From NCBI GenBank assembly GCA_944388305.1, contig CALXIG010000004.1, positions 1 through 49,966 on the forward strand: a stretch of 49,966 nucleotides of DNA, read 5' to 3'. Positions 3,486 to 42,558 of this stretch are shown here, one piece after another. The translations under genes were made by a program, and so were the position numbers. How positions within the stretch are numbered: the first letter of the stretch is position 1; every line of letters begins with the position of its first letter. Below the pieces are notes generated by a model. That model worked only from the letters and a program-made list of their open reading frames with translations. It was not told the origin of the DNA and made no database searches. The stretch is from an uncultured Clostridia bacterium (GTDB lineage: Bacteria > Bacillota > Clostridia > Oscillospirales > Ruminococcaceae).

Positions 3486-4482
3486 AGAGCGGCCCCCTTT
3501 CCTCCAGCGTCTCGCACTCCTTTTGCAGCATCCGCAGCGATTCCGCGCGGAGCGCGGGGTCCGGATTGTCGTAAAGAATGCGGGCGATGAATTCCCAGAT
3601 ATCCTCGCACTTCCGGCGGACGCTATAAAATTCAAGCCGTTCCCGGTTGAGAGCCGCTTCCGGCCGCTCTTCGCGGTAGGCGGCCCAGAGGGCGTCGAAG
3701 TGCGGCAGGGCGGTCAGTGCGAAGAAATCCGCCTCCGGCGGAGCGTACCGGAGCCCTTCCCAGTCGAGAAGGACGAGCTGTCCGCCCTGTATGAGATTCC
3801 AGCCGTGAATGTCGGTATGGCAGGGCACCATCAGGCAGGGCGCGTGGCGCAGCTTCCGCGCCAGACGGCTCAGATGGTCGCAGAGAGCCAGCAGCCGTCC
3901 GCGGCAGCCGTTCAGGATGGCCGCCAGATCCGGCGGAAGGCCATGCGGCTGCTCCAGCAGGGAAATCAGCTGCCCCGCGAAAGGAAGCTGGAAATTTTCA
4001 CGCAGAGGGCTGGGGCGGGCCGGGCGCGGCATCGCGGGCACAAACCGGTGCAGCCTGCCTATGATCGCCCCAAGCCCGGCGGACTGCTCCCGGGTGAGCG
4101 GGCGTTCCCCGAGCGTCTCCCCCTCGATGTAGCGGTAGAGCAGGCAGAGGTACCGCTCGTCCTCCCGCCAGAGTCCGCCGTTCACGGCCGGCACCAGGGA
4201 GGGCACCTGTCCGGGCAGAGGTCCCTCCTCCATCTGCCGCACAAAGCGGAGGGAAAAGTCCAGGTGACGCGTCCACTGCGCCGACGACTTCTCCTCCTTG
4301 TCGTAAATCTTGACAAAAAAGGAACCTTCTGCCGCGTCCGCCCGGTAGGCGCGGGCCGACCAGCCGCCTTTCTGTTCCCGAACAGCCGAAGCGGAGAGCG
4401 CATAGTCTTTCGCCAGAAGATTTGTTAAATATTCCTCCAGATTTTCGGTTCTCAACTGTTCCAGCACCACCTTTTCCGTCAA
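3475..4482 (-). CDS. Aminoglycoside/small-molecule phosphotransferase (APH/ChoK kinase-like fold)
   Basis: 335 aa. Brenner-type catalytic motif PCHTDIHGWNLIQGGQLVLLDWEGL (HxDxxxxN...D). TTG start at 4482. Confidence 0.75.
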   Translation of the reverse strand: MTEKVVLEQLRTENLEEYLTNLLAKDYALSASAVREQKGGWSARAYRADAAEGSFFVKIYDKEEKSSAQWTRHLDFSLRFVRQMEEGPLPGQVPSLVPAVNGGLWREDERYLCLLYRYIEGETLGERPLTREQSAGLGAIIGRLHRFVPAMPRPARPSPLRENFQLPFAGQLISLLEQPHGLPPDLAAILNGCRGRLLALCDHLSRLARKLRHAPCLMVPCHTDIHGWNLIQGGQLVLLDWEGLRYAPPEADFFALTALPHFDALWAAYREERPEAALNRERLEFYSVRRKCEDIWEFIARILYDNPDPALRAESLRMLQKECETLEERGPLYAV

Positions 4483-5156: not shown

Positions 5157-6899
5157 TTACCGCAGCGCCCGCACCAGCTCCTCGATGAGGTCGATCCGCC
5201 GGAAAGGCGTGATGAGGTAGTAGCCGTCCACCCAGGGCGCGATTTTTTCCGCCGATTCGAGGCAGAGCGAAACGCCGAGTTTCCCGGCCGCTTCGCGGTC
5301 CAGTCCCTCATAGCGGGCGAGAATTTCCTCCGACAGGCGGATGCCTGCGATTTCATTGTGCATGAAGCTGGCGTTGCGGTAGCTGACCGGCGGCATCAGT
5401 CCGCCCAGAATGCGCAGGCCGGTCTCCTCCCGCGCCCGGCGAAGGTTGCGGACCGCCTCTTCGGTGAAGACAGGCTGGGTCATCAGCAGCTCCACCCCGT
5501 TTTCTTTTTTGCGCAGCGCCTTTTGAAGCTCCGCGTCAAAATTGCGGGCGTTGACATTGAGCGCCCCGGCGATCAGAAAAGGCGCGGGCAGCGTCTCCTC
5601 GCCGAGCGCGCGGATGTATCCGGCCAGCATGGCTGAGTTGAAGTTGTAGACCGCTTTGACCTCCTCCCGCTCTGCGCCGGGGATCGGGTCGCCGGTGATG
5701 GCGAGGATGTTCTGTACCCCCTCCATCGCGAGACCGAGGAGGAGAGCCTTTGCCGCGTTCAGATTGCGGTCGCGGCAGGTCATGTGGGGGATGGCATCCA
5801 TGTCCAGCTCCCGTTTGAGCTTGGCCGCGAGGAGGGAGCTGTCGGCCCGCACCCGCGCGACGGGACAGTCGGCGATGGTGACGGCGTCAGTTCCGGCCGC
5901 CTTGAGGCGGGCGGCGGCTTCCATGAAAAAACTGCCGTCCGCGTCGGCGGGCGGATCCACCTCGACGGCAATGACCCGTTTTCCGGCGGCAAGTTTTTCG
6001 CGCAGCCGGTTGGCGGGCGCTTTTTTTTGCGCCGGCCCGGAAACGGAAACCGGCTCTCCGGCGGGGCGCGCTGCGGTGAGGAGGGCGGCGGTCCGCGCGA
6101 TGTGGGCGGGGGTGGTGCCGCAGCAGCCGCCGAGAATGTGCACGCCGGAAGCCGCGATTTTGCTCATCTGCTCCGCGAAGTACTCTGCGCCGCTTTCAAA
6201 ATAGGTCCGTCCCCCGACGATTGCCGGGTAGCCGGAGTTTGGCATGACCGACCGCACCGTCCCGGCGGGCAGTCCGCCGGCCAGACGGCGCAGATGCGCC
6301 GGGCCGGAGACGCAGTTGAGTCCCACCGCGTCGGCGTAGGCCGCGGCCTCCTTTGCCAGGCGGAGGGCGGGAAGGCCCTGTCTCGTGAAGCCATCCGGCG
6401 TGGCTGCAAAGGAGACGAGCAGGAAGGCGTCCGGCTTCTGCTCCCGGATAAAGGCGCAGGTTTCCCGCAGCCCCTCCGCGGAGGGAAAGGTCTCAAAGAG
6501 AAAGTTTTCCACTCCCATTTCGAGAAATACCGCCGCAATGCGGCGGTATTCGGCCGCCGCATCTTCCTCCGGCAGGAGGATGGGACCGATGTCTGCGAAG
6601 ACAAAGGCATTCGCTCCCGCAGCTTCCCGCGCGAGGGCATAGCCCGCCCGCAGGATCTCCCGCACCGTACCGGAATCTGCCATGAGGGCCGCGGTGTTGG
6701 CGCCGTAGGTGTTGGTCTTGAGAGCCGCCGCCCCCGCCTCCCGGTAGGCGCGGTGAATGGCCAGGACGTCGGCGGGGTGGGAGAGATTTGCAAGCTCGCA
6801 GCGCGGGTCCCGGGCGGGATAGAGGCTGCGGTACCAGGTGCCCATCGCGCCGTCAAAGAGGAGCGGCCGCTCCTTCAGATATTCGCGGACCGGTTTCAT
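5157..6899 (-). CDS. yitJ: Bifunctional homocysteine S-methyltransferase / 5,10-methylenetetrahydrofolate reductase (YitJ-like)
   Basis: 580 aa. N-terminal Hcy-binding domain (LLFDGAMGT..TNTYGAN..GGCCGTTPAHI) is fused to a C-terminal MTHFR domain (VEVDPP..HMTCRDRN..LAITGD). The ATG overlaps the metH stop (ATGA at 6896-6899). Confidence 0.85.
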   Translation of the reverse strand: MKPVREYLKERPLLFDGAMGTWYRSLYPARDPRCELANLSHPADVLAIHRAYREAGAAALKTNTYGANTAALMADSGTVREILRAGYALAREAAGANAFVFADIGPILLPEEDAAAEYRRIAAVFLEMGVENFLFETFPSAEGLRETCAFIREQKPDAFLLVSFAATPDGFTRQGLPALRLAKEAAAYADAVGLNCVSGPAHLRRLAGGLPAGTVRSVMPNSGYPAIVGGRTYFESGAEYFAEQMSKIAASGVHILGGCCGTTPAHIARTAALLTAARPAGEPVSVSGPAQKKAPANRLREKLAAGKRVIAVEVDPPADADGSFFMEAAARLKAAGTDAVTIADCPVARVRADSSLLAAKLKRELDMDAIPHMTCRDRNLNAAKALLLGLAMEGVQNILAITGDPIPGAEREEVKAVYNFNSAMLAGYIRALGEETLPAPFLIAGALNVNARNFDAELQKALRKKENGVELLMTQPVFTEEAVRNLRRAREETGLRILGGLMPPVSYRNASFMHNEIAGIRLSEEILARYEGLDREAAGKLGVSLCLESAEKIAPWVDGYYLITPFRRIDLIEELVRALR

Positions 6900-9292
6900 T
6901 TCTCCTCCTCCCCAAAGACCTCCTTCGCGATGTCAGCCGAACGCTTGGCGTCCTTTGCGTAGTAGTCGGCCCCCATTTCCGCGGCGAACTGTTCGGTCAG
7001 CACCGCTCCGCCGACCATGATTTTGCAGTCATGGCCCGACGCGCGGAGCTGCCGGATGGTCTCGGCCATGCTCTTCAGGGTGGTGGTCATGAGGGCGGAC
7101 AGCCCGACCAGACGGACCTTTTCCCTGACAGCCGTCTGGACGATGGTTTCGGGCGGCACGTCCCGTCCGAGGTCGAGGACCTGGAACCCGTAGTTTTCCA
7201 GCAGGACCTTGACAATATTCTTGCCGATGTCATGGACGTCCCCCTTGACGGTGGCGAGGATGATTCTGCCCCGGCTTGCCGGCGCACCGCCGGAGGCCGC
7301 CATTTTCCGGCGGATAACCTCAAACGCCTCCTGAGAGGCCGCCGCGGCATTTAGAAGCTGCGGGAGAAAGAGGGTTCCCTTCTCAAACCCGTCTCCGACC
7401 TCGTCGAGGGCCGGGATGAGCATCCCGTCAATGATCGAAAACGGGTCCTGCGTTTCCAGCAGCCGGGCGGTGATCTCCCGCGCGTCCTCCTTCAGCCCCG
7501 CCTTAACCGCTTCGGGCAGGGTGCGGCTTTCGGCGGGTGCGGCTTTCGGCGGGGTAGCGGGCGCGCCCTTCGGGGCAAAGCGGGCGATGTAGTCCGCTGC
7601 GCCTTTATCCAGGCCGTGCAGTACCCGGAAGGCGGCGACCGCATCCGTCATGGCAGAGACGTTGGGGTTTAGGATGGGGAAGTTCAGGCCGTTTGCCAGG
7701 GCTGCGGAGAGGAAGGCAGCGTTTAAAAGCTCCCGGTTTGGCAGGCCGAAGGAGATGTTGGAGACGCCGAGCACGGTCTGAAGCCCCAGTTCCTCCCGCA
7801 CCAGCCGCACCGCGCGGAGAGTTTCCGCCGCCTGGTCCTACTGCGCCGAGACGGTGAGGGTGAGGCAGTCGATGAGCACCTTTTCCCGCGGGATGCCGTA
7901 GGAAAGGGCGGCGTCCAGGATGCGGCGGGCGATGGCCAGCCGTTCCGCAGCGGTTTTGGGGATTCCGGCGCTGTCGAGGGTGAGTCCGACGACAAAGGCG
8001 CCGTATTTTTTGACCAGGGGGAGAATTTTCTCCAGCGTTTCGGCATCGCCGTTGACCGAGTTGACAATGCCGACCCCGTGGAAGGCCCGCAGGCCGGCTT
8101 CGATGGCGGCGGGATCGGAGGAGTCGATCTGGAGCGGGAGGGAGAGGACGCTTTGCAGTTCCTCGACCGCCTGCCGCATGAGGGCAGGCTCATCCACGCC
8201 GGGCATTCCGACGTTCAGATCGAGCAGTTCCGCTCCCGCACCGGCCTGTTCCAGCCCCTGGTCGAGAATGTAGTCGATATCCCCGTCCAGGAGCGCCTGC
8301 TGAAACTGTTTTTTTCCGGTGGGATTCAGCCGCTCGCCGATGATGTGCACGCCGCCGGCCGGGAGAATTCGGGTGGCTGAACAGAAGGCCGGTGCGGGTT
8401 TGGGCTGCGGCGCGGGGGCGAGGGGCGCGAGCGCGTCCCGCAGAGCGGCAATGTGGGCGGGGGTGGTGCCGCAGCAGCCGCCTGCAAGCCGCATCCCGCA
8501 TTCCGCGAAGGCGGCCATCTGCTGCGCAAACAGGGCGGGGGTGAGGGAGTAGCTTCCGTCCCGCGGGTCAGGCAGCCCGGCGTTCGCCTTGACGACGAGG
8601 GGAAGGGAGGTGGACGCCGCGATCTCCCGCGCGATGGGAAGCAGTGCGTCCGGCCCCAGCGAGCAGTTGACGCCCAGTGCGTCGGCGCCGAGTCCCTCGA
8701 TGGTCCGGGCCATCGCCGCGGCGGAGCAGCCGGTGAAGGTGCGCCCGCCCGCTTCAAAGGTCATCGTCGCGACGACGGGGAGGTTTGTGCACTCCTTCGC
8801 CGCGAGGACAGCGGCCCGCAGCTCGCCCAGATCGGTCATGGTCTCGAAGACGACAAGGTCGGCCCCCAGTTCCGCTCCCGCGAGGAGCTGTTCCTTAAAA
8901 AGCGCATAGGCCTCCTCAAAGCGCAGCATCCCCGCGGGGTACAGCATTTCACCGATCGGACCGATGTCGAGCGCGAGGAGCGGCCGCTCCCCTGCAAATC
9001 CGTCAGCGGCCTGCCGGGCGGCGGCAAAGGCGGCGCGGATGACGGTCTGCGGGTCCGTTCCGCTGTTGGCGAGCTTGCGGCGGCTGGCGCCGAAAGTGCA
9101 GGTGTAGAGGATGTTGCTTCCGCTTTCCAGGTACTGCCGGTGGACGGCGGTGACCTTTTCGGGGTGCTGGAGGACGAAAAGCTCGGGGCGCTCGCCCGGT
9201 TTGAGGCCCTCCTTCTGAAGCATGGTTCCCATCGCGCCGTCGAGGAGGACAAACGGCTTGCGGGCGAGGAGACGGGTCAGTTTATTTTCCAC
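6896..9292 (-). pseudogene. metH: Cobalamin-dependent methionine synthase (short MetH: Hcy-binding, pterin-binding and B12-binding domains) interrupted by one in-frame TAG at 7840-7838
   Basis: One continuous 799-codon frame. The N-terminal fragment 7838-9292 has VLLDGAMGT, GGCCGTTPAHI and GERLNPTGKK. The C-terminal fragment 6896-7810 has GVSNISFGLP and the B12 motif GDVHDIGKNIV..GLSALMTTT. My translation across the break is LTLTVSAQ-TAG-DQAAETLRAVRLVREELG, with no frameshift. Confidence 0.85.
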
Positions 9293-37393: not shown

Positions 37394-38467
37394 ATGGAAA
37401 AGACCATCACCGTCATCCGCGGCGACGGCATCGGCCCGGAAATCATCGGGCAGGCGCTTCGGGTCCTGCGGAAAATTGAGGAGACCTCCGGCTGCACGTT
37501 CCACTTCCAGGAAGCCCTGGCGGGCGGCTGCGCCATCGACGCCTGCGGGACCTCCCTGCCGGAGGAGACGCTGCAAAAGTGCTTAAACTGCGATAGTGTG
37601 CTGCTGGGGGCGGTGGGCGGCCCCAAATGGGACGGCGTCCCAAAGGAGATCCGCCCGGAAGCGGCGCTGCTGGGACTGCGCGCGGCCATGGGGCTTTATG
37701 CGAATCTCCGCCCGGCCCGGCTCTTTCCCCAGCTTGCGGCGGCGTCCCCCCTGAGAGCGGAGATTGCAGAGCGGGGCGTGGACCTCATGATGGTCCGGGA
37801 GCTGACCGGCGGGGTCTATTTCGGCGAGCACCGCACCGGCATCGAAAACGGCGGGCTGACCGCCCATGACGACATGGTTTATACGGAGCGTGAAATTGAG
37901 CGCATCGTTCGCCGGGGGTTCGAGACCGCCCGGAAACGCTCCCGCCGCCTCACCTCGGTGGATAAGGCAAACGTCCTCGACACTTCCCGCCTCTGGCGGA
38001 AGGTCGCTCACCGGGTGGCGGAGGCGTACCCCGATGTGGCGTTTTCCGACCTTCTGGTGGACAACGCCGCCATGCAGCTGGTCAAAGACCCCGCCCAGTT
38101 CGACGTCATCGTCACCGAAAACCTCTTCGGGGACATTTTGTCCGACGAGGCGAGCATGATTACCGGCTCGATTGGAATGATGGCTTCCGCCTCGCTGGGG
38201 GACGGGCCGCGCGGGATGTACGAGCCCATCCACGGCTCCGCGCCGGACATCGCCGGAAAGGACCTGGCAAACCCCGTCGGAACCATTCTCTCCGCCGCAA
38301 TGATGCTCCGGTACTCCTTCGGCATGGCCGGGGAGGCGGACCGCATCGAACGGGCGGTCAGTGCCGTCCTCGACGCCGGATACCGCACCGCTGACTGCAT
38401 GAGCGTGGGCTGCACCCGGCTCACCTGCTCGGAGATGGGGGAGCGCATTCTGCGGGAGCTTTGCTGA
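37394..38467 (+). CDS. leuB: 3-isopropylmalate dehydrogenase
   Basis: [67 protein letters not shown]. Confidence 0.93.
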
Positions 38468-38504
38468 TTTTTGCGGAAAATTCCGGCTTTTTCCGCGCTG
38501 CCCC

Positions 38505-38533
38505 TTGACAAACGGGGCCGCATCCGCTATAAT
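38505..38533 (+). promoter_or_regulatory. Consensus sigma-A promoter driving the cobalamin riboswitch
   Basis: TTGACA (38505-38510), exactly 17 nt, TATAAT (38528-38533). Confidence 0.75.
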
Positions 38534-38554
38534 AAAATCAAATTGAATGACAGA

Positions 38555-38737
38555 TTGCAGATTTTGTGCCGCCGTGCATCTGCCGGCGCACAGGAAGCCG
38601 GGTGCAAATCCCGCACAGGAACGCTGCTGTAAGGATGGAGCGGTTTTTCACGGACAGGATTTCCTGTCCAGTCACTGGAAGCTTTTCCGGGAAGGCGAAA
38701 AACTGGCGATGAGAGCCGAGTCAGAATACATCTGCAT
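38555..38737 (+). promoter_or_regulatory. Cobalamin (B12) riboswitch aptamer
   Basis: P1 is TTGCAGAT (38555-38562) paired with ATCTGCA (38730-38736). The core is AGGAAGCCGGGTGCAAATCCCGCACAGGAACGCTGCTGTAAGG, then AGTCACTGG..N..GGGAAGGCG, and a B12-box-like AGTCAGAATACATCTGCA. This order matches my recollection of the RF00174 consensus. Confidence 0.85.
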
Positions 38738-38829
38738 GAAGAAGACCTGTTCACTTCGGACTCAAGGGGAACGGACTGGTACCTGTACGGATTTTTTGTC
38801 CGGCGGGTGCTTTTGCGGCAGTTTTTTCC

Positions 38830-38862
38830 GCGCGGACCTTTTGACCGGTCCGCGCTTTTTTT
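38830..38862 (+). terminator. Intrinsic terminator of the riboswitch expression platform
   Basis: GCGCGGACC (38830-38838), TTTTGACC loop, GGTCCGCGC (38847-38855), followed by TTTTTTT. The 5' arm can alternatively pair with GTCCGGCGG (38798-38806). Confidence 0.85.
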
Positions 38863-38897
38863 GCCAACTCAATCCAATTTCATATACCTCCGACCTT

Positions 38898-38932
38898 CAA
38901 AACCCTGCCGACCTCCAACCGGCGGGGTTTTG
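38898..38932. other. Isolated 13-bp hairpin between the riboswitch terminator and purC
   Basis: CAAAACCCTGCCG, 9-nt loop, CGGCGGGGTTTTG (one G-U pair). There is no U-tract on the plus strand. Confidence 0.5.
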
Positions 38933-39008
38933 AACTGGAAAACGGATTTTTCCCCGAAACATCACAAAAAACTGCGCGGAAAGGGCCGAAATTTTTCCGA
39001 TGGAAAAC

Positions 39009-39037
39009 TATACAACCGGATGGAATTGTGCTATAAT
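39009..39037 (+). promoter_or_regulatory. Candidate purC promoter
   Basis: TATACA (39009-39014), 17 nt, TGc-TATAAT (39032-39037, extended -10). Confidence 0.5.
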
Positions 39038-39106
39038 AATTGGGTAATCGGTTTTCCACTGGCCCCCCGCCGACCGGCCGGGGATGTTGTATTTTGGAGG
39101 ATGTTT

Positions 39107-39784
39107 ATGAAAAAAGTGTACACCGGCAAAACCAAAGACGTTTTTGAGCTCGACAACGGCAACTACCAGCTCCTCTTTAAGGATGACTGCACCGGCACCG
39201 ACGGCGTTTTCGATCCCGGCGCGAACACGGTCGGCCTGCAGATCGAGGGCATCGGCCGCGAGAACCTGAAGGTTTCCGTCTACTTCTTTGAAATCCTCAA
39301 AAAGGCCGGCATCAAAACCCACTATGTCGGCGCCGACATCGACAAAGCGACGATGGAAGTTCTCCCCGCCAAGGTCTTCGGCCACGGCCTCGAGGTGATC
39401 TGCCGTTACCGCGCGGTCGGCAGCTTCTTCCGCCGCTACGGCGACTACATTGAGGAGGGCGCGCCGCTCGACGCCTATGTGGAGACCACCTTTAAGAACG
39501 ACGACCTGGGCGACCCGCTCGTCACTCCCGACGGCCTCGCTTACCTCGGCGTCATGACCCTCGCGCAGTACGCCGAAATGAAGGAAATGACCCAGAAGAT
39601 CTCCGGCATTGTCCGCGACACCCTTAAGGAAAAAGGCCTCGATCTCTACGATATCAAGTTCGAGTTCGGCTACCATGACGGCCAGGTCATCCTCATCGAC
39701 GAGATCGCTTCCGGCAATATGCGCGTCTACAAGGACGGCGAGATTGTCGAGCCTGTCGAGCTGACCAAGCTCATTCTCGCGTAA
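39107..39784 (+). CDS. purC: Phosphoribosylaminoimidazole-succinocarboxamide (SAICAR) synthase
   Basis: ATG 39107 follows GGAGG. The sequence is [27 protein letters not shown]-type nucleotide-binding pattern..DIKFEFG..ILIDEI. The track ORF from 38807 is a 5' over-extension. Confidence 0.9.
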
Positions 39785-39800
39785 ATTTCCACAGCAAATC

Positions 39801-39840
39801 AAACAGGAGGCCGCCGCGGTCTCCTGTTTTGCGTTATTTC
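39801..39840 (+). terminator. Terminator after purC
   Basis: AAACAGGAG (39801-39809), 11-nt loop, CTCCTGTTT (39821-39829), followed by TGCGTTATTTC. Confidence 0.65.
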
Positions 39841-39860: not shown

Positions 39861-40619
39861 ATGATGATGCAGCCAAAACTTCTGGAGTGCTGCGTGGATT
39901 CGGTCGAGTCGGCCGTGATCGCGGCGGAAAACGGCGCAGACCGTCTGGAACTCTGTGCCAATCTCGTCATCGGCGGAACTTCCCCCAGCCCGGCTCTCTT
40001 TCAGGAGGTGCAAAAGCGGGTGAAAGTCCCCGTTCGGGTGCTGCTGCGGCCCCGGTTCGGCGATTTCCTCTACACCGGGGCGGAGTTTGCCGTCCTCCGG
40101 CAGGAGGTTCGGCTCTTTCGGGAGCTGGGCGCGGATGGGCTGGTTTTCGGCTGCCTGACGGCGGAGGGGGCGCTCGATCGGGAGCGGCTGGCCGTCCTCA
40201 TGGAGGAGGCGGGCCCCCTGCCTGTCACCCTGCACCGGGCGTTTGATCTCTGCGCCGACCCCTTCGCGGCCCTGGAAACGGCGCGGGAGCTGGGAATCGG
40301 CACCATTCTCACCTCGGGGCAGGCGGCTTCCTGTCTGGCCGGCAGGGAGCTGCTCGCCGCGCTTTGCCGGAAGGCGGAGGAGATCACCATCCTCGCGGGA
40401 GCCGGGGTGGACGCCGCGGCGATTGCCGCGTTGCTGGGCGGGACGCCGGTGCGGGCTTTCCACATGTCCGGCAAGGAGGTGCTGAAAAGCGGGATGCGGT
40501 TCCGGCGGGAGGGCGTGCCGATGGGCCTGCCCGGAATGAGCGAGTACAGCCTCTGGCGGACCAGTCCCGCCGCCGTCCGTGCGGCGCGGAGGGCGCTGGA
40601 CGCAGGACGGGACGCGTAA
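39861..40619 (+). CDS. cutC: CutC family (copper homeostasis) TIM-barrel protein
   Basis: LECCVDSVESAVIAAENGADRLELC..GGTSPS..VLLRPRFGDFLY..VFGCL..HRAFD..ILTSGQ. Confidence 0.85.
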   Translation: MMMQPKLLECCVDSVESAVIAAENGADRLELCANLVIGGTSPSPALFQEVQKRVKVPVRVLLRPRFGDFLYTGAEFAVLRQEVRLFRELGADGLVFGCLTAEGALDRERLAVLMEEAGPLPVTLHRAFDLCADPFAALETARELGIGTILTSGQAASCLAGRELLAALCRKAEEITILAGAGVDAAAIAALLGGTPVRAFHMSGKEVLKSGMRFRREGVPMGLPGMSEYSLWRTSPAAVRAARRALDAGRDA

Positions 40620-41070: not shown

Positions 41071-41104
41071 GGTGGGCGGAGACTTCCGCCCGCCTTTTCT
41101 TTTT
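41071..41104. terminator. Terminator shared by the small ORF (+) and dpaB (-)
   Basis: GGTGGGCGGA (41071-41080), GACT loop, TCCGCCCGCC (41085-41094), followed by TTTTCTTTTT. It abuts the dpaB stop codon. Confidence 0.7.
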
Positions 41105-41681
41105 ACACGCAGAGCAGCGGCTGGAGCTGCTCCCCGCGGAGAGCGGCTTCGAGCGCCGCCGGGATGCGGGTGAAATCCGCCACCAGCGAGGTGGGCTTGC
41201 GGAAGGGATCGTCCTGCCGGAAGGGGACAAAGTAGTAGTGCCGCCGGTTGAGCAGCGCGCCCAGGTTGGCGGCGCTTCCCGAGAGGGCGTCGTTTGTCGA
41301 GATGGCGAGGACGACCGGCTTGCCGCCGCGCAAATGGCTTTTCACCGCCATGGTGACGCAGTTGTCGGTGATGCCGTTTGCGAGCTTGGCGGCGGTGTTG
41401 CCGGTACAGGGCGCGACCAGCATGATGTCGGTCAGATTTTTGGGGCCGACCGGCTCGGCGCCGGGAATGTCAAGAATGGCCGGCCGGCCGCTCAGCTCCT
41501 CAATTTTGCGGAGAAAATCGGCCGCCCGTCCGAAGCGGGTGTCGGTCGAGGCCGCAGCGGGGGAGAGGATGGGGAGAATCTCGTAGCCGGCCTCCCGGCA
41601 GGCGGCCATGCTTTCGAGCATTTTGGAAAAGGTACAGAAGGAACCGGTGACAGCGAAGCCCAGGCGGATCGGGTCACGCAT
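41103..41681 (-). CDS. spoVFB: Dipicolinate synthase subunit B (SpoVFB, flavoprotein family)
   Basis: GFAVTGSFCTF..ILPILS..VAPCTGNTAAKLANGITD..VLAISTNDALS..YYFVPFRQDD. Confidence 0.9.
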   Translation of the reverse strand: MRDPIRLGFAVTGSFCTFSKMLESMAACREAGYEILPILSPAAASTDTRFGRAADFLRKIEELSGRPAILDIPGAEPVGPKNLTDIMLVAPCTGNTAAKLANGITDNCVTMAVKSHLRGGKPVVLAISTNDALSGSAANLGALLNRRHYYFVPFRQDDPFRKPTSLVADFTRIPAALEAALRGEQLQPLLCV

Positions 41682-42558
41682 ACACGCACCCCCTTTCGGC
41701 CAGGATGTTGCCGATGGTTTTGTCGATGATGGCGGCGGCCGTGACCGGTGCGGTTTTGCCGGGAAGCGAAAGCGCGTGAATGGCCCGCAGCCCCAGCTCC
41801 CCGGCGACCGCGTAGTCGATTCCGCCCGGGGCGGAGGCGAGGTCGAGCAGCAGGGTGTCGCAGTCGAGCAGAGAGAGCTCTCTTTCTCCGAAAATCCGGG
41901 CTGGGATGGTATTGAGGATCACCCGGTACCGGGGGAGCATCCGCTCCATACAGTTGAGCGGCAGGCAGTGCGCGCCGTATGCCTCGGCCCAGGCCAGGTC
42001 GCGGCAGCTGCGGGCAGCGACCGTCACCTGCGCCCCGGCCCCGGCGAATACGCGGTGGCAGAGCCGGGCGACCTTGCCGTAGCCGGTGATAAGCACCCGC
42101 TGGCCGTTCAGCGCGGCAGGCAGCTCCTCGAGAACGATCTGCAAGGCGCCTTCGGCGGTGGGTACGGCGTTTAAGACGGCGAATTCTTCCCGCCTGAGAT
42201 AGTCGGCAAAGTCCAGCCCCCGCTCCTCGCAGGCGAGCAGGAGCGCCTCATCCGCCTTGCCGCCCAGAACAAGTGCTCCTTTGCGGCAGAGGTCGAGGAG
42301 GTGGGAAAGCAGCAGCTTTTCGCGGGTGAGCGGTGCGTTCAGCGTCAGGCCGTTTTGGGTGACCGGCATGGGGAGCACCAGCACGTCAGGCGCGTCCTTG
42401 AGCTCGCTTAAGGAGAGAAGGCGGGTGACGTGCTCCGAAAACTCCGCGCCGCTGTCGAACCCGATGGCGCAGACCGTCCCCCGCTCGGCCAGCAGGTTGG
42501 CGAGGTGGATGTAACGGGAATCGCCGCCCGCGACCAGATACAGTTTGTTAGGATACAT
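41674..42558 (-). CDS. spoVFA: Dipicolinate synthase subunit A (SpoVFA)
   Basis: YLVAGGDSRYIHLANLL..NAVPTAEGALQ..VLITGYGKVARLCHRVFAGAGAQVTVAAR (Rossmann GxGxxA)..DLASAPGGIDY. Overlaps subunit B by 8 nt. Confidence 0.9.
   Translation of the reverse strand: MYPNKLYLVAGGDSRYIHLANLLAERGTVCAIGFDSGAEFSEHVTRLLSLSELKDAPDVLVLPMPVTQNGLTLNAPLTREKLLLSHLLDLCRKGALVLGGKADEALLLACEERGLDFADYLRREEFAVLNAVPTAEGALQIVLEELPAALNGQRVLITGYGKVARLCHRVFAGAGAQVTVAARSCRDLAWAEAYGAHCLPLNCMERMLPRYRVILNTIPARIFGERELSLLDCDTLLLDLASAPGGIDYAVAGELGLRAIHALSLPGKTAPVTAAAIIDKTIGNILAERGCVYA

Follow-up and report, generated by a model that had tools for sequence, protein, structure and literature searches.

Cobalamin (vitamin B12) riboswitches are usually read as markers of genes for B12 uptake, B12 synthesis or B12-independent isozymes. 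A 49,966-nucleotide (nt) stretch of DNA from an uncultured Clostridia bacterium (contig CALXIG010000004.1; this whole stretch is hereafter called the window) carries such a riboswitch, with a promoter and a terminator of its own, between leuB and purC, the gene for SAICAR synthetase. An earlier note, written from the letters of this DNA alone, had described the riboswitch as a self-contained unit with no cognate gene, and had compared it to the trans-acting riboswitch RNAs EutX and Rli55. In the case of EutX, a terminator that is stabilised by B12 gives rise to a short isoform, while in the absence of B12 a longer isoform is made that carries extra RNA (PMC5821096). We compared the window with its relatives, and in the sequences of this clade the riboswitch is always paired with purC, a description that replaces the "no cognate gene" of the earlier note. 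The aptamer and the switch itself are of a known kind. What is new is the stable pairing of the riboswitch with purC and an arrangement in which a conditional terminator, a G-poor spacer with repeats, a covarying hairpin and a private promoter are combined, of which we found no description.

A cobalamin riboswitch paired with purC

The Rfam cobalamin riboswitch model RF00174 matches the plus strand of the window over its full length (model positions 1-189 of 189) with 60.7 bits against a gathering score of 31.5 and an E value of 1.2e-12, and this is the sole Rfam match in the whole 50-kb window. When positions 38480-39200 were scanned permissively with Rfam, just sub-threshold noise was returned besides the cobalamin riboswitch. 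The core strings GGUGCAAAUCC, GUCACUGG and GGGAAGGC of the window aptamer align with the RF00174 consensus, and the helix P1 that closes the aptamer (38556-62 with 38730-36) is supported by the Rfam alignment as well as by the RNAalifold consensus, with compensatory changes in the relatives. Across seven leaders, 14 of the 58 predicted aptamer pairs have been kept by changes on both sides, and the leaders of the relatives score between 58.6 and 68.5 bits. The element is a full-length and genuine member of RF00174, as the earlier note had supposed, and the closing helix is essentially the one it had drawn. By inspection we saw no clear complementarity or covariation between aptamer loop L5 and the loop of the regulatory hairpin that follows the aptamer (see below); L5 barely varies in this set. 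Upstream, promoter P1 agrees with the TTGACA-17-TATAAT consensus at every position, so that the "perfect" promoter of the earlier note is real, and it ends 8 nt 5' of the aptamer; a promoter scan of 1.1 kb found two promoter-like sites where 0.4 are expected. All related leaders have promoter P1 at the same place, with TTGACA or TTGACT as the -35 box and TATAAT, TATACT or TATGCT as the -10 box.

The relatives that we compared (designated by L numbers) comprise every findable contig whose PurC is at least 89% identical to that of the window, the nearest being Candidatus Merdivicinus faecavium, an uncultured Oscillospiraceae (L010), at 97%. All of these contigs carry an RF00174 riboswitch a few hundred bases 5' of purC and on the same strand. 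A single layout, namely promoter P1, aptamer, regulatory and middle hairpins, terminator T1, a second hairpin, promoter P2 and purC, is shared by the window and L001-3, L010, L006, L090, L091/92 and L093/94; one more contig, L110, resembles the purC-linked leaders and shows part of this layout, its sequence ending just past T1. The surroundings of the cassette are another matter. It is preceded by leuB and followed by cutC in the window and in L001-3, and in L010 leuB and then a gene for a DUF1275 membrane protein stand upstream and cutC downstream. Two divergent glycosyltransferase genes precede it in L006, where a convergent leuB follows; ferredoxin-type genes precede it in L090, where a convergent leuA follows; and in L093/94 it lies between a divergent rplM-rpsI pair and an SdpI-family gene. 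Riboswitch-then-purC in one orientation is found, then, in six or seven lineages and in five genomic contexts. No B12-related gene stands beside the cassette in any lineage, and cutC is missing from it in most of them. The DUF1275 gene of L010 (2534-3322) is inserted between leuB and the riboswitch promoter and is absent from the window, which points to a rearrangement at the upstream border.

These lineages are well separated from one another. Between the window and the other lineages the identity of purC at third codon positions is 54-78%, and their LeuB proteins are about 80% identical. Since the structures of the aptamer, T1 and the second hairpin (H2) were kept while synonymous sites came near to saturation, we conclude that the switch is functional and travels with purC. 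The distribution of breaks in synteny points the same way and is supportive only: to judge from the aligned contigs, at least three to four rearrangements have occurred at each cassette border within spacers of 40-100 nt, and apparently none in the 245-450 nt between T1 and purC. If intergenic breakpoints fell at random locally, the lack of any break between T1 and purC would be improbable, with the proviso that the events are few.

Outside this clade we surveyed about 95 genomes and contigs in which PurC is at most 86% identical, from Holdemania, other Oscillospiraceae, Acutalibacteraceae and others. No cobalamin riboswitch was found 5' of these distant purC genes by a regular expression in 89 loci or by Rfam in 36 loci, and an nhmmer profile run on 123 loci found no riboswitch at purC outside the clade; five further contigs, three of them also covered by nhmmer, have gaps of just 12-324 nt upstream of purC. 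A further homologue search turned up no additional close PurC clusters. Leaders of other kinds do occur at purC in the survey. Four Acutalibacteraceae have a ZTP (pfl) riboswitch before purE-purC (L029 1522-1604, L035 2740-2822, L038 988-1070 and L043 3346-3428), and an Erysipelotrichaceae metagenome-assembled genome (MAG) has a T-box leader upstream of purC (L014 3590-3834, minus strand). In a MAG from roe-deer gut (L022), Gut-1 RNA matches lie just 3' of purC at 4182-4253 (plus strand) and 4320-4396 (minus strand).

Scanning metagenomes with the aptamer pattern gave 24 loci, none of which shows purC. Most of them have a riboswitch of the same subtype before Peripla_BP_2/FecCD (btuF-type) ABC transporter genes; one precedes an SBP_bac_5 binding protein, and others are disrupted by insertions. 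In the btuF-type leaders the gene starts 35-60 nt past the terminator, and the unit at purC resembles a paralogue of such a transporter leader. In L105, L107, L113 and L116 a btuF leader (as in L096) is broken directly after the regulatory hairpin, about 150 nt past the pattern match, by unrelated DNA that carries an open reading frame (ORF) of 139 amino acids with no Pfam match, and in L099 (1866-2375) a DUF772 transposase follows a riboswitch of the same subtype. Riboswitches of this subtype have demonstrably been orphaned by insertions in other genomes.

It might be asked, therefore, whether the unit in the window is a relic or a neutral passenger, left behind by a lost B12 transporter or biosynthesis gene, or duplicated from a btuF leader, and kept only because the gap before purC is small. 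Its closest aptamer relatives do precede btuF-type transporters, insertions have orphaned its cousins as just described, purC is not B12-related, and the second copy of a repeat in the spacer beyond T1 (CCAACTCAAT, see below) is degenerate in the window. All the same, the aptamer is intact and its pairs compensated despite the divergence of the third codon positions, the consensus promoter has been retained, T1 has been re-created from different sequence in each lineage, H2 covaries, and there is no B12-related gene beside the cassette anywhere in the clade. Because the aptamer, T1 and H2 have been kept by compensatory or structure-preserving change, the earlier note's suggestion of a relic left by deletion of a transporter gene is unlikely, and we regard the wider idea of a passenger as highly improbable.

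The expression platform and the RNA beyond it

Folding gives the same three hairpins downstream of the aptamer in all seven leaders: a regulatory (P13-like) hairpin, a middle hairpin and then a terminator with a U-run. The regulatory hairpin folds in every lineage around the conserved loop UUCGGACUCAAG, which is also present in same-subtype riboswitches ahead of btuF-type transporters; since the loop is shared with these transporter-linked riboswitches, the hairpin is part of the riboswitch. The middle hairpin (-19.0 kcal/mol in the window) is present in seven of seven leaders in unrelated sequences. T1, which in the window has nine pairs, eight of them G-C, at 38830-38855, followed by T7, folds with -18.7 kcal/mol and starts 80 nt past the aptamer; the earlier note had rightly called it a strong terminator. 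A hairpin and U-run built of unrelated sequences occupy its place in seven of seven leaders, with fold z-scores of -3.1 to -4.3.

The earlier note had also proposed competing helices, and here too folding bears it out. The strands GUCCGGCGG (38798-806) and CCGCGCGGAC (38828-37) can form a helix of 9 base pairs (bp) with one bulge (-14.8 kcal/mol) that cannot coexist with T1 or with the middle hairpin. In folds that stop short of the 3' strand of T1, the partner of its 5' strand is the 3' arm of the regulatory hairpin in L006, L090 and L110, whereas upstream strands take this place in the window. These predicted alternative pairings of the T1 5' arm fit the expected layout of a switch in which the ligand, by stabilising aptamer and regulatory hairpin, brings about termination, and a mutually exclusive terminator/antiterminator platform is what the computed folds give. 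Most likely, transcription would stop on B12 binding, which is the layout of an OFF switch.

Past T1 lies a spacer of unusual composition. Its 33 nt contain two G, against 31% G in the window, where 0.2% of all 33-nt segments are equally G-poor, and in the relatives it contains zero to three. It is C/A-rich and unstructured, and includes the motif CCAACTCAAT at 38864-73, a degenerate second copy at 38874-83 and the sequence ACCTCC at 38886-91. Two copies of CCAACTCAAT at variable spacing occur in five of six lineages, L006, L010, L090 and L093/L094 among them as well as the window with its degenerate second copy, and the repeats lie 10-20 nt apart in the spacers of the window, L006, L010, L090 and L093. 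Elsewhere in the window, outside the leader, CCAACTCAAT and its complement do not occur above chance. The composition of the spacer recalls a Rho-utilisation site or the C-rich seed of a Firmicute small RNA.

That the true cargo of the switch is a small protein gene overlooked between T1 and purC seems to us barely credible. ORFs of 35-128 amino acids can be drawn in the interval, but the 128-residue frame (38547-38933) crosses the aptamer and has no Pfam match, the spacer from T1 to H2 is almost free of G, and no ATG or GTG in it has a Shine-Dalgarno (SD) sequence before it; moreover, no frame is conserved in L006, and in L091 the spacer has been replaced entirely. The earlier note's observation that no ORF preceded by a ribosome-binding site (RBS) follows the riboswitch agrees with ours.

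The hairpin H2, mentioned in the earlier note as a lone hairpin, has a 15-bp stem of -24.2 kcal/mol in the window. Across five lineages 96% of its cells are paired and six of the 15 pairs have changed on both sides, a degree of conservation that none of 500 shuffles matched and that drops to 32-58% paired when the register is slid. It is followed by U4 in the window and by three to five U in L010, L006, L090 and L093, and the terminator scan does not call it in the window, where it is perhaps a weak second terminator. In the window, L010 and L006 the H2 loop CCUCCAA (CCUCCAAC) is the exact complement of UUGGAGG in the SD region of purC, and in L090 the match includes one G-U pair. The H2 loop of L093 is UUUUU and has no anti-SD sequence, and L091 has neither H2 nor repeats. 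In L091/92 the whole spacer from T1 to P2 has been swapped for an unrelated structured RNA that includes another terminator-like hairpin; these contigs nonetheless retain promoter P1, an aptamer with the top score of all, T1, P2 and purC. In L010, H2 with its 3' flank UUGAAUUUU (about 3779-3818) resembles a duplicate of H3, a hairpin in the 5' untranslated region of purC, with its flank UUGAAUUUUGGAGG (about 3958-3989); the alignment score is 38, where the null reaches 24 at most. In the window (38896-38934 against 39063-39100) the two are only weakly alike, and in L006, L090 and L093 not at all.

Between H2 and purC lies P2, the separate promoter-like signal of the earlier note, which has the form TATACA-17-TG-n-TATAAT with an extended -10. 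Its -35-region string CTATACAA and its extended -10 are kept in six of six full leaders, and its -10 box matches that of the Holdemania purC promoter, TGTGCTAAACT, at a locus that has no riboswitch.

The RNA between P1 and H2 could be an end in itself, that is, a stand-alone riboswitch-gated non-coding RNA of the EutX/Rli55 kind, with a short isoform to T1 in the presence of B12 and one of about 395 nt to H2 in its absence. The extra 75 nt, with the CCAACUCAAU repeats and the H2 loop, would then be the active part and would bind a protein or mRNAs; the likeliest target would be the RBS of the purC mRNA made from P2, so that purC translation would fall at low B12. This is the layout of EutX, in which a constitutive promoter, a B12 aptamer, a conditional terminator, extra RNA and a second hairpin follow one another (PMC5821096). 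The covariation of H2 and the U residues behind it, the other terminator-like hairpin that L091 has before P2, the unstructured and G-poor spacer with its widespread repeats, and the conserved P2, by which purC is transcribed independently, are all in keeping with such an RNA. So is the exact complementarity of the H2 loop to the purC SD, and in the window and L010 an extended duplex, some 20 bp long and of -30 kcal/mol, is predicted between this RNA and the region where purC translation starts (equalled in 2% and 0.6% of cases by shuffles). However, this duplex beats the shuffles in the window and L010 only and partly follows from the lineage-specific similarity of H2 and H3; the UUGGAGG sequence is widespread at purC genes that have no riboswitch; and masking of the SD is no better than with dinucleotide-shuffled upstream sequence (shuffle fractions 0.09, 0.21, 0.51, 0.79, 0.30 and 0.01). 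L093 and L091, which are without the anti-SD loop, and L091 also without the repeats, have kept their riboswitch, and in the window H2 is followed by no more than a weak U-tract. Nor does the RNA look like EutX in its extra part: a scan for the ANTAR-type dual hairpins that the earlier note had raised (hexaloops with A1 and G4) found scattered hexaloops, none of them conserved and none at all in L006 and L093, and the leader has no further Rfam match. We consider this RNA a serious rival, though less likely than read-through into purC (see below). An antisense mechanism, which the earlier note had raised by analogy with AspocR, is excluded, as purC is co-directional with the riboswitch in every lineage.

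Possible read-through into purC

Among the alternatives listed in the earlier note, the conserved linkage favours B12-dependent read-through into purC. Our preferred reading, which is tentative and to which we give a probability of about 0.4, is that the riboswitch and purC form the upstream and downstream halves of a conserved cassette with two promoters, and that read-through at low B12 boosts purC. The earlier note had let such read-through extend to purC-cutC, and that extension has to be dropped: a terminator with a 13-pair hairpin and a T-rich tail follows purC, so purC is monocistronic and cutC lies outside the unit, and cutC is absent in most lineages.

In the preferred reading promoter P1, a very strong one, would fire constitutively. 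Binding of B12 would stabilise the aptamer together with the regulatory hairpin; the middle hairpin and T1 would then form, and the transcript would end near 38862 with a length of about 320 nt. Without B12, the 5' arm of T1 would join with strands upstream of it into an antiterminator, and the polymerase would cross the G-poor spacer and the weak H2. Once past H2 it would most likely reach purC, which would give a B12-repressible pulse above the basal transcripts from P2. The rationale would lie in folate metabolism. The window encodes a B12-dependent methionine synthase, so the organism uses B12, and a shortage of B12 is expected to trap folate as methyl-tetrahydrofolate (methyl-THF) and thereby to starve the steps of purine synthesis that depend on formyl-THF. 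The ZTP riboswitch senses that same formyl-THF shortage, and sister lineages may meet the same stress with the ZTP riboswitch that they carry on purE-purC. In this scheme we infer the ligand response, the strands of the antiterminator, the arrival of read-through at purC, the sign of the effect and its physiology.

Several features of the locus are consistent with the idea that P1 transcripts run into purC. The invariant orientation and adjacency of riboswitch and gene would fit read-through, and so would the dispensability of the spacer in L091, which suggests that only the switch and the gene matter. The U4 tract of H2 and the failure of the terminator scan to call it in the window fit a leaky stop.

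Other features weigh against it. Two elements stand between T1 and purC, the covarying H2 (in L091 a different terminator-like hairpin) and the conserved, independent P2, and together they look like insulation of two transcription units. In Holdemania purC is independent of P1, since the homologous -10 box works there without a riboswitch. The association of riboswitch and purC is limited to a small clade of gut bacteria, that with PurC at least 89% identical, and the linkage could partly reflect the small target, 245 nt, that the interval offers to rearrangement breakpoints. Finally, we know of no B12 logic for SAICAR synthetase, and our search of a library of papers for B12 riboswitches together with purC or SAICAR synthetase found nothing relevant, which agrees with the remark in the earlier note that purC is not a known B12-regulated gene.

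The two promoters could also work against each other. P1 and P2 are co-oriented and 500 bp apart, and match the consensus at 12 of 12 and 10 of 12 positions, respectively; read-through from P1 at low B12 might then occlude P2 and yield a purC mRNA with a long and poorly translated leader, so that B12 would activate purC rather than repress it. Aminoimidazole ribotide (AIR) is the branch point between purines on one side and thiamine and the benzimidazole lower ligand on the other, and such transcriptional interference would restrain the step after AIR when AIR is needed for the benzimidazole lower ligand. The predicted accessibility of the purC SD is indeed far lower when the transcript comes by read-through than when it starts at P2, in six of six lineages (in the window it falls from 0.59 to 0.016), but this drop is mostly an effect of composition and length, as shuffled extensions do nearly the same. 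In addition, H2 would cut the polymerase traffic that interference needs, and there is no precedent for it with a B12 riboswitch. We think interference improbable. Doubtful, too, is a new kind of two-isoform regulatory RNA that needs no ANTAR elements and whose long low-B12 form, with its CCAACUCAAU tract and anti-SD loop, would silence purC mRNA or titrate an RNA-binding factor and so make the AIR branch responsive to B12 with inverted logic. B12 should lower purC expression if read-through is right, and raise it if either the two-isoform RNA or interference is.

A switch maintained for so long beside a core purine gene hints at an unreported link between B12 and purine synthesis. Should P1 transcripts run on into purC, B12 status and de novo purine synthesis would be linked directly for the first time, in parallel with the ZTP riboswitches that sister lineages have there; should they stop at H2, the unit would add to EutX/Rli55 a second class of B12-gated small RNA that works by another mechanism. 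The locus also advises caution, in that calls of "orphan" riboswitches made from single genomes can fall to synteny in diverged relatives.

The gene at the end of the cassette encodes a protein of 225 amino acids that matches PF01259 (E = 1.6e-37) and, from end to end, PurC structures such as 1KUT (E = 3.5e-28); with TIGR00081 it scores 110.8 bits, below the cutoff of 189.9, as does its whole subfamily. Orthologues of the window purC often sit after purE in other Clostridia, and this gene order and the ZTP riboswitch in relatives indicate that PurC of this type is the ordinary enzyme of the purine pathway. By its sequence we take the PurC of the window to be an ordinary purine-pathway SAICAR synthetase of the short clostridial type. 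It is nearer to that of Holdemania (Erysipelotrichaceae, 86%) than to those of other Oscillospiraceae (70-75%), a relationship that points to horizontal transfer of purC in the distant past. An N-terminal extension of PurC, for which the frame is open back to a GTG at 38807 and database proteins of 290-331 amino acids exist, was considered and rejected, as the frame is closed in L006; the "long PurC" entries of that size (P0001, P0003, P0008 and P0108) are chimeras of assembly or gene calling with internally duplicated PurC segments.

The coordinates of the cassette are collected in Table 1. On its two sides in the window lie leuB (37394-38467; TIGR00169, 488 bits) and cutC (39861-40619; PF03932). 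The B12-dependent methionine synthase is split and is encoded on the minus strand at 6896-9292, with S-methyl_trans and Pterin_bind domains at 7838-9292 and B12-binding domains at 6896-7810; a fused homocysteine S-methyltransferase/MTHFR gene adjoins it (5157-6899, minus strand). Dipicolinate synthase subunits A and B (dpaA and dpaB, 41103-42558, minus strand) indicate a spore former. The two-component genes that Pfam identifies in the window code for an OmpR-type regulator, the kinase that belongs to it and a hybrid kinase.

Table 1. Features of the riboswitch-purC cassette, in coordinates of the window.
Feature	Position	Strand	Basis
Promoter P1 (TTGACA-17-TATAAT)	38505..38533	+	12/12 match; predicted start near 38540
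Cobalamin riboswitch aptamer, RF00174	38542..38749	+	covariance-model match, covariation
Regulatory hairpin, P13-like, loop UUCGGACUCAAG	38747..38774	+	folds in every lineage
Middle hairpin; its 3' arm GUCCGGCGG (38798-806) is the candidate antiterminator strand	38778..38811	+	folding
Terminator T1 (GCGCGGACC-loop-GGUCCGCGC, U7), putative conditional stop	38830..38862	+	terminator scan, folds
G-poor, C/A-rich spacer	38863..38895	+	composition, motif CCAACTCAAT
Hairpin H2, loop ACCUCCAAC	38896..38934	+	fold, covariation
Promoter P2 of purC (TATACA-17-TG-n-TATAAT)	39009..39037	+	promoter scan, conservation
purC 5' untranslated region: hairpin H3 (~39063-39083) and Shine-Dalgarno GGAGG (39096-39100)	39063..39100	+	fold
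purC, SAICAR synthetase	39107..39784	+	PF01259, structure match
Terminator after purC	39801..39829	+	hairpin and T-rich tail

Comparison with known systems

The nearest relatives of the unit are the btuF-type RF00174 leaders of gut Clostridia (L096, L100 and L108 are examples), which have the same aptamer subtype including the L5 region ACAGGAACGCUGCUGUAAGG, a consensus-like promoter and the loop UUCGGACUCAAG, and in which a middle hairpin also precedes the intrinsic terminator. In these leaders the RBS of the transporter gene lies 35-60 nt past the terminator, whereas here the G-poor repeat spacer, the covarying hairpin and an independent promoter intervene and the gene is purC. The unit shares with any canonical cis-acting leader its position directly upstream of a gene on the same strand and the conservation of that linkage. 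A canonical leader is uninterrupted, however, and serves a gene of B12 metabolism; here H2 and P2 lie between the platform and the gene, and that gene is purC.

Like EutX of Enterococcus faecalis and Rli55 of Listeria monocytogenes, whose aptamers are for AdoCbl, the unit has its own promoter, a B12 aptamer, a terminator and no ORF on its transcript, and to this extent the analogy drawn in the earlier note holds. It fails with regard to the extra RNA, which in EutX is an ANTAR dual-hairpin decoy for EutV within a eut locus: the window unit has neither such a decoy nor such a locus, no eut genes being present among the ORFs of the 50-kb window scanned with Pfam. The counterpart of the second terminator of EutX would be H2, which is conserved and covarying but has a short U-tract and is not called by the terminator scan. 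Unlike EutX, moreover, the unit always has purC downstream of it and co-oriented. In AspocR of Listeria a B12 riboswitch likewise decides whether a non-coding transcript is extended; the extension of AspocR is antisense to pocR, whereas the unit described here shares its strand with the gene that follows it, and none of the five contexts offers an antisense target.

The remaining comparison is with the ZTP riboswitch that precedes purE-purC in L029, L035, L038 and L043. It belongs to a different family (RF01750), binds ZMP/ZTP and acts directly on purE-purC with no second terminator or internal promoter in between, but, as in the window, it is a metabolite-sensing leader on an orthologous purC and is tied to one-carbon/folate status.

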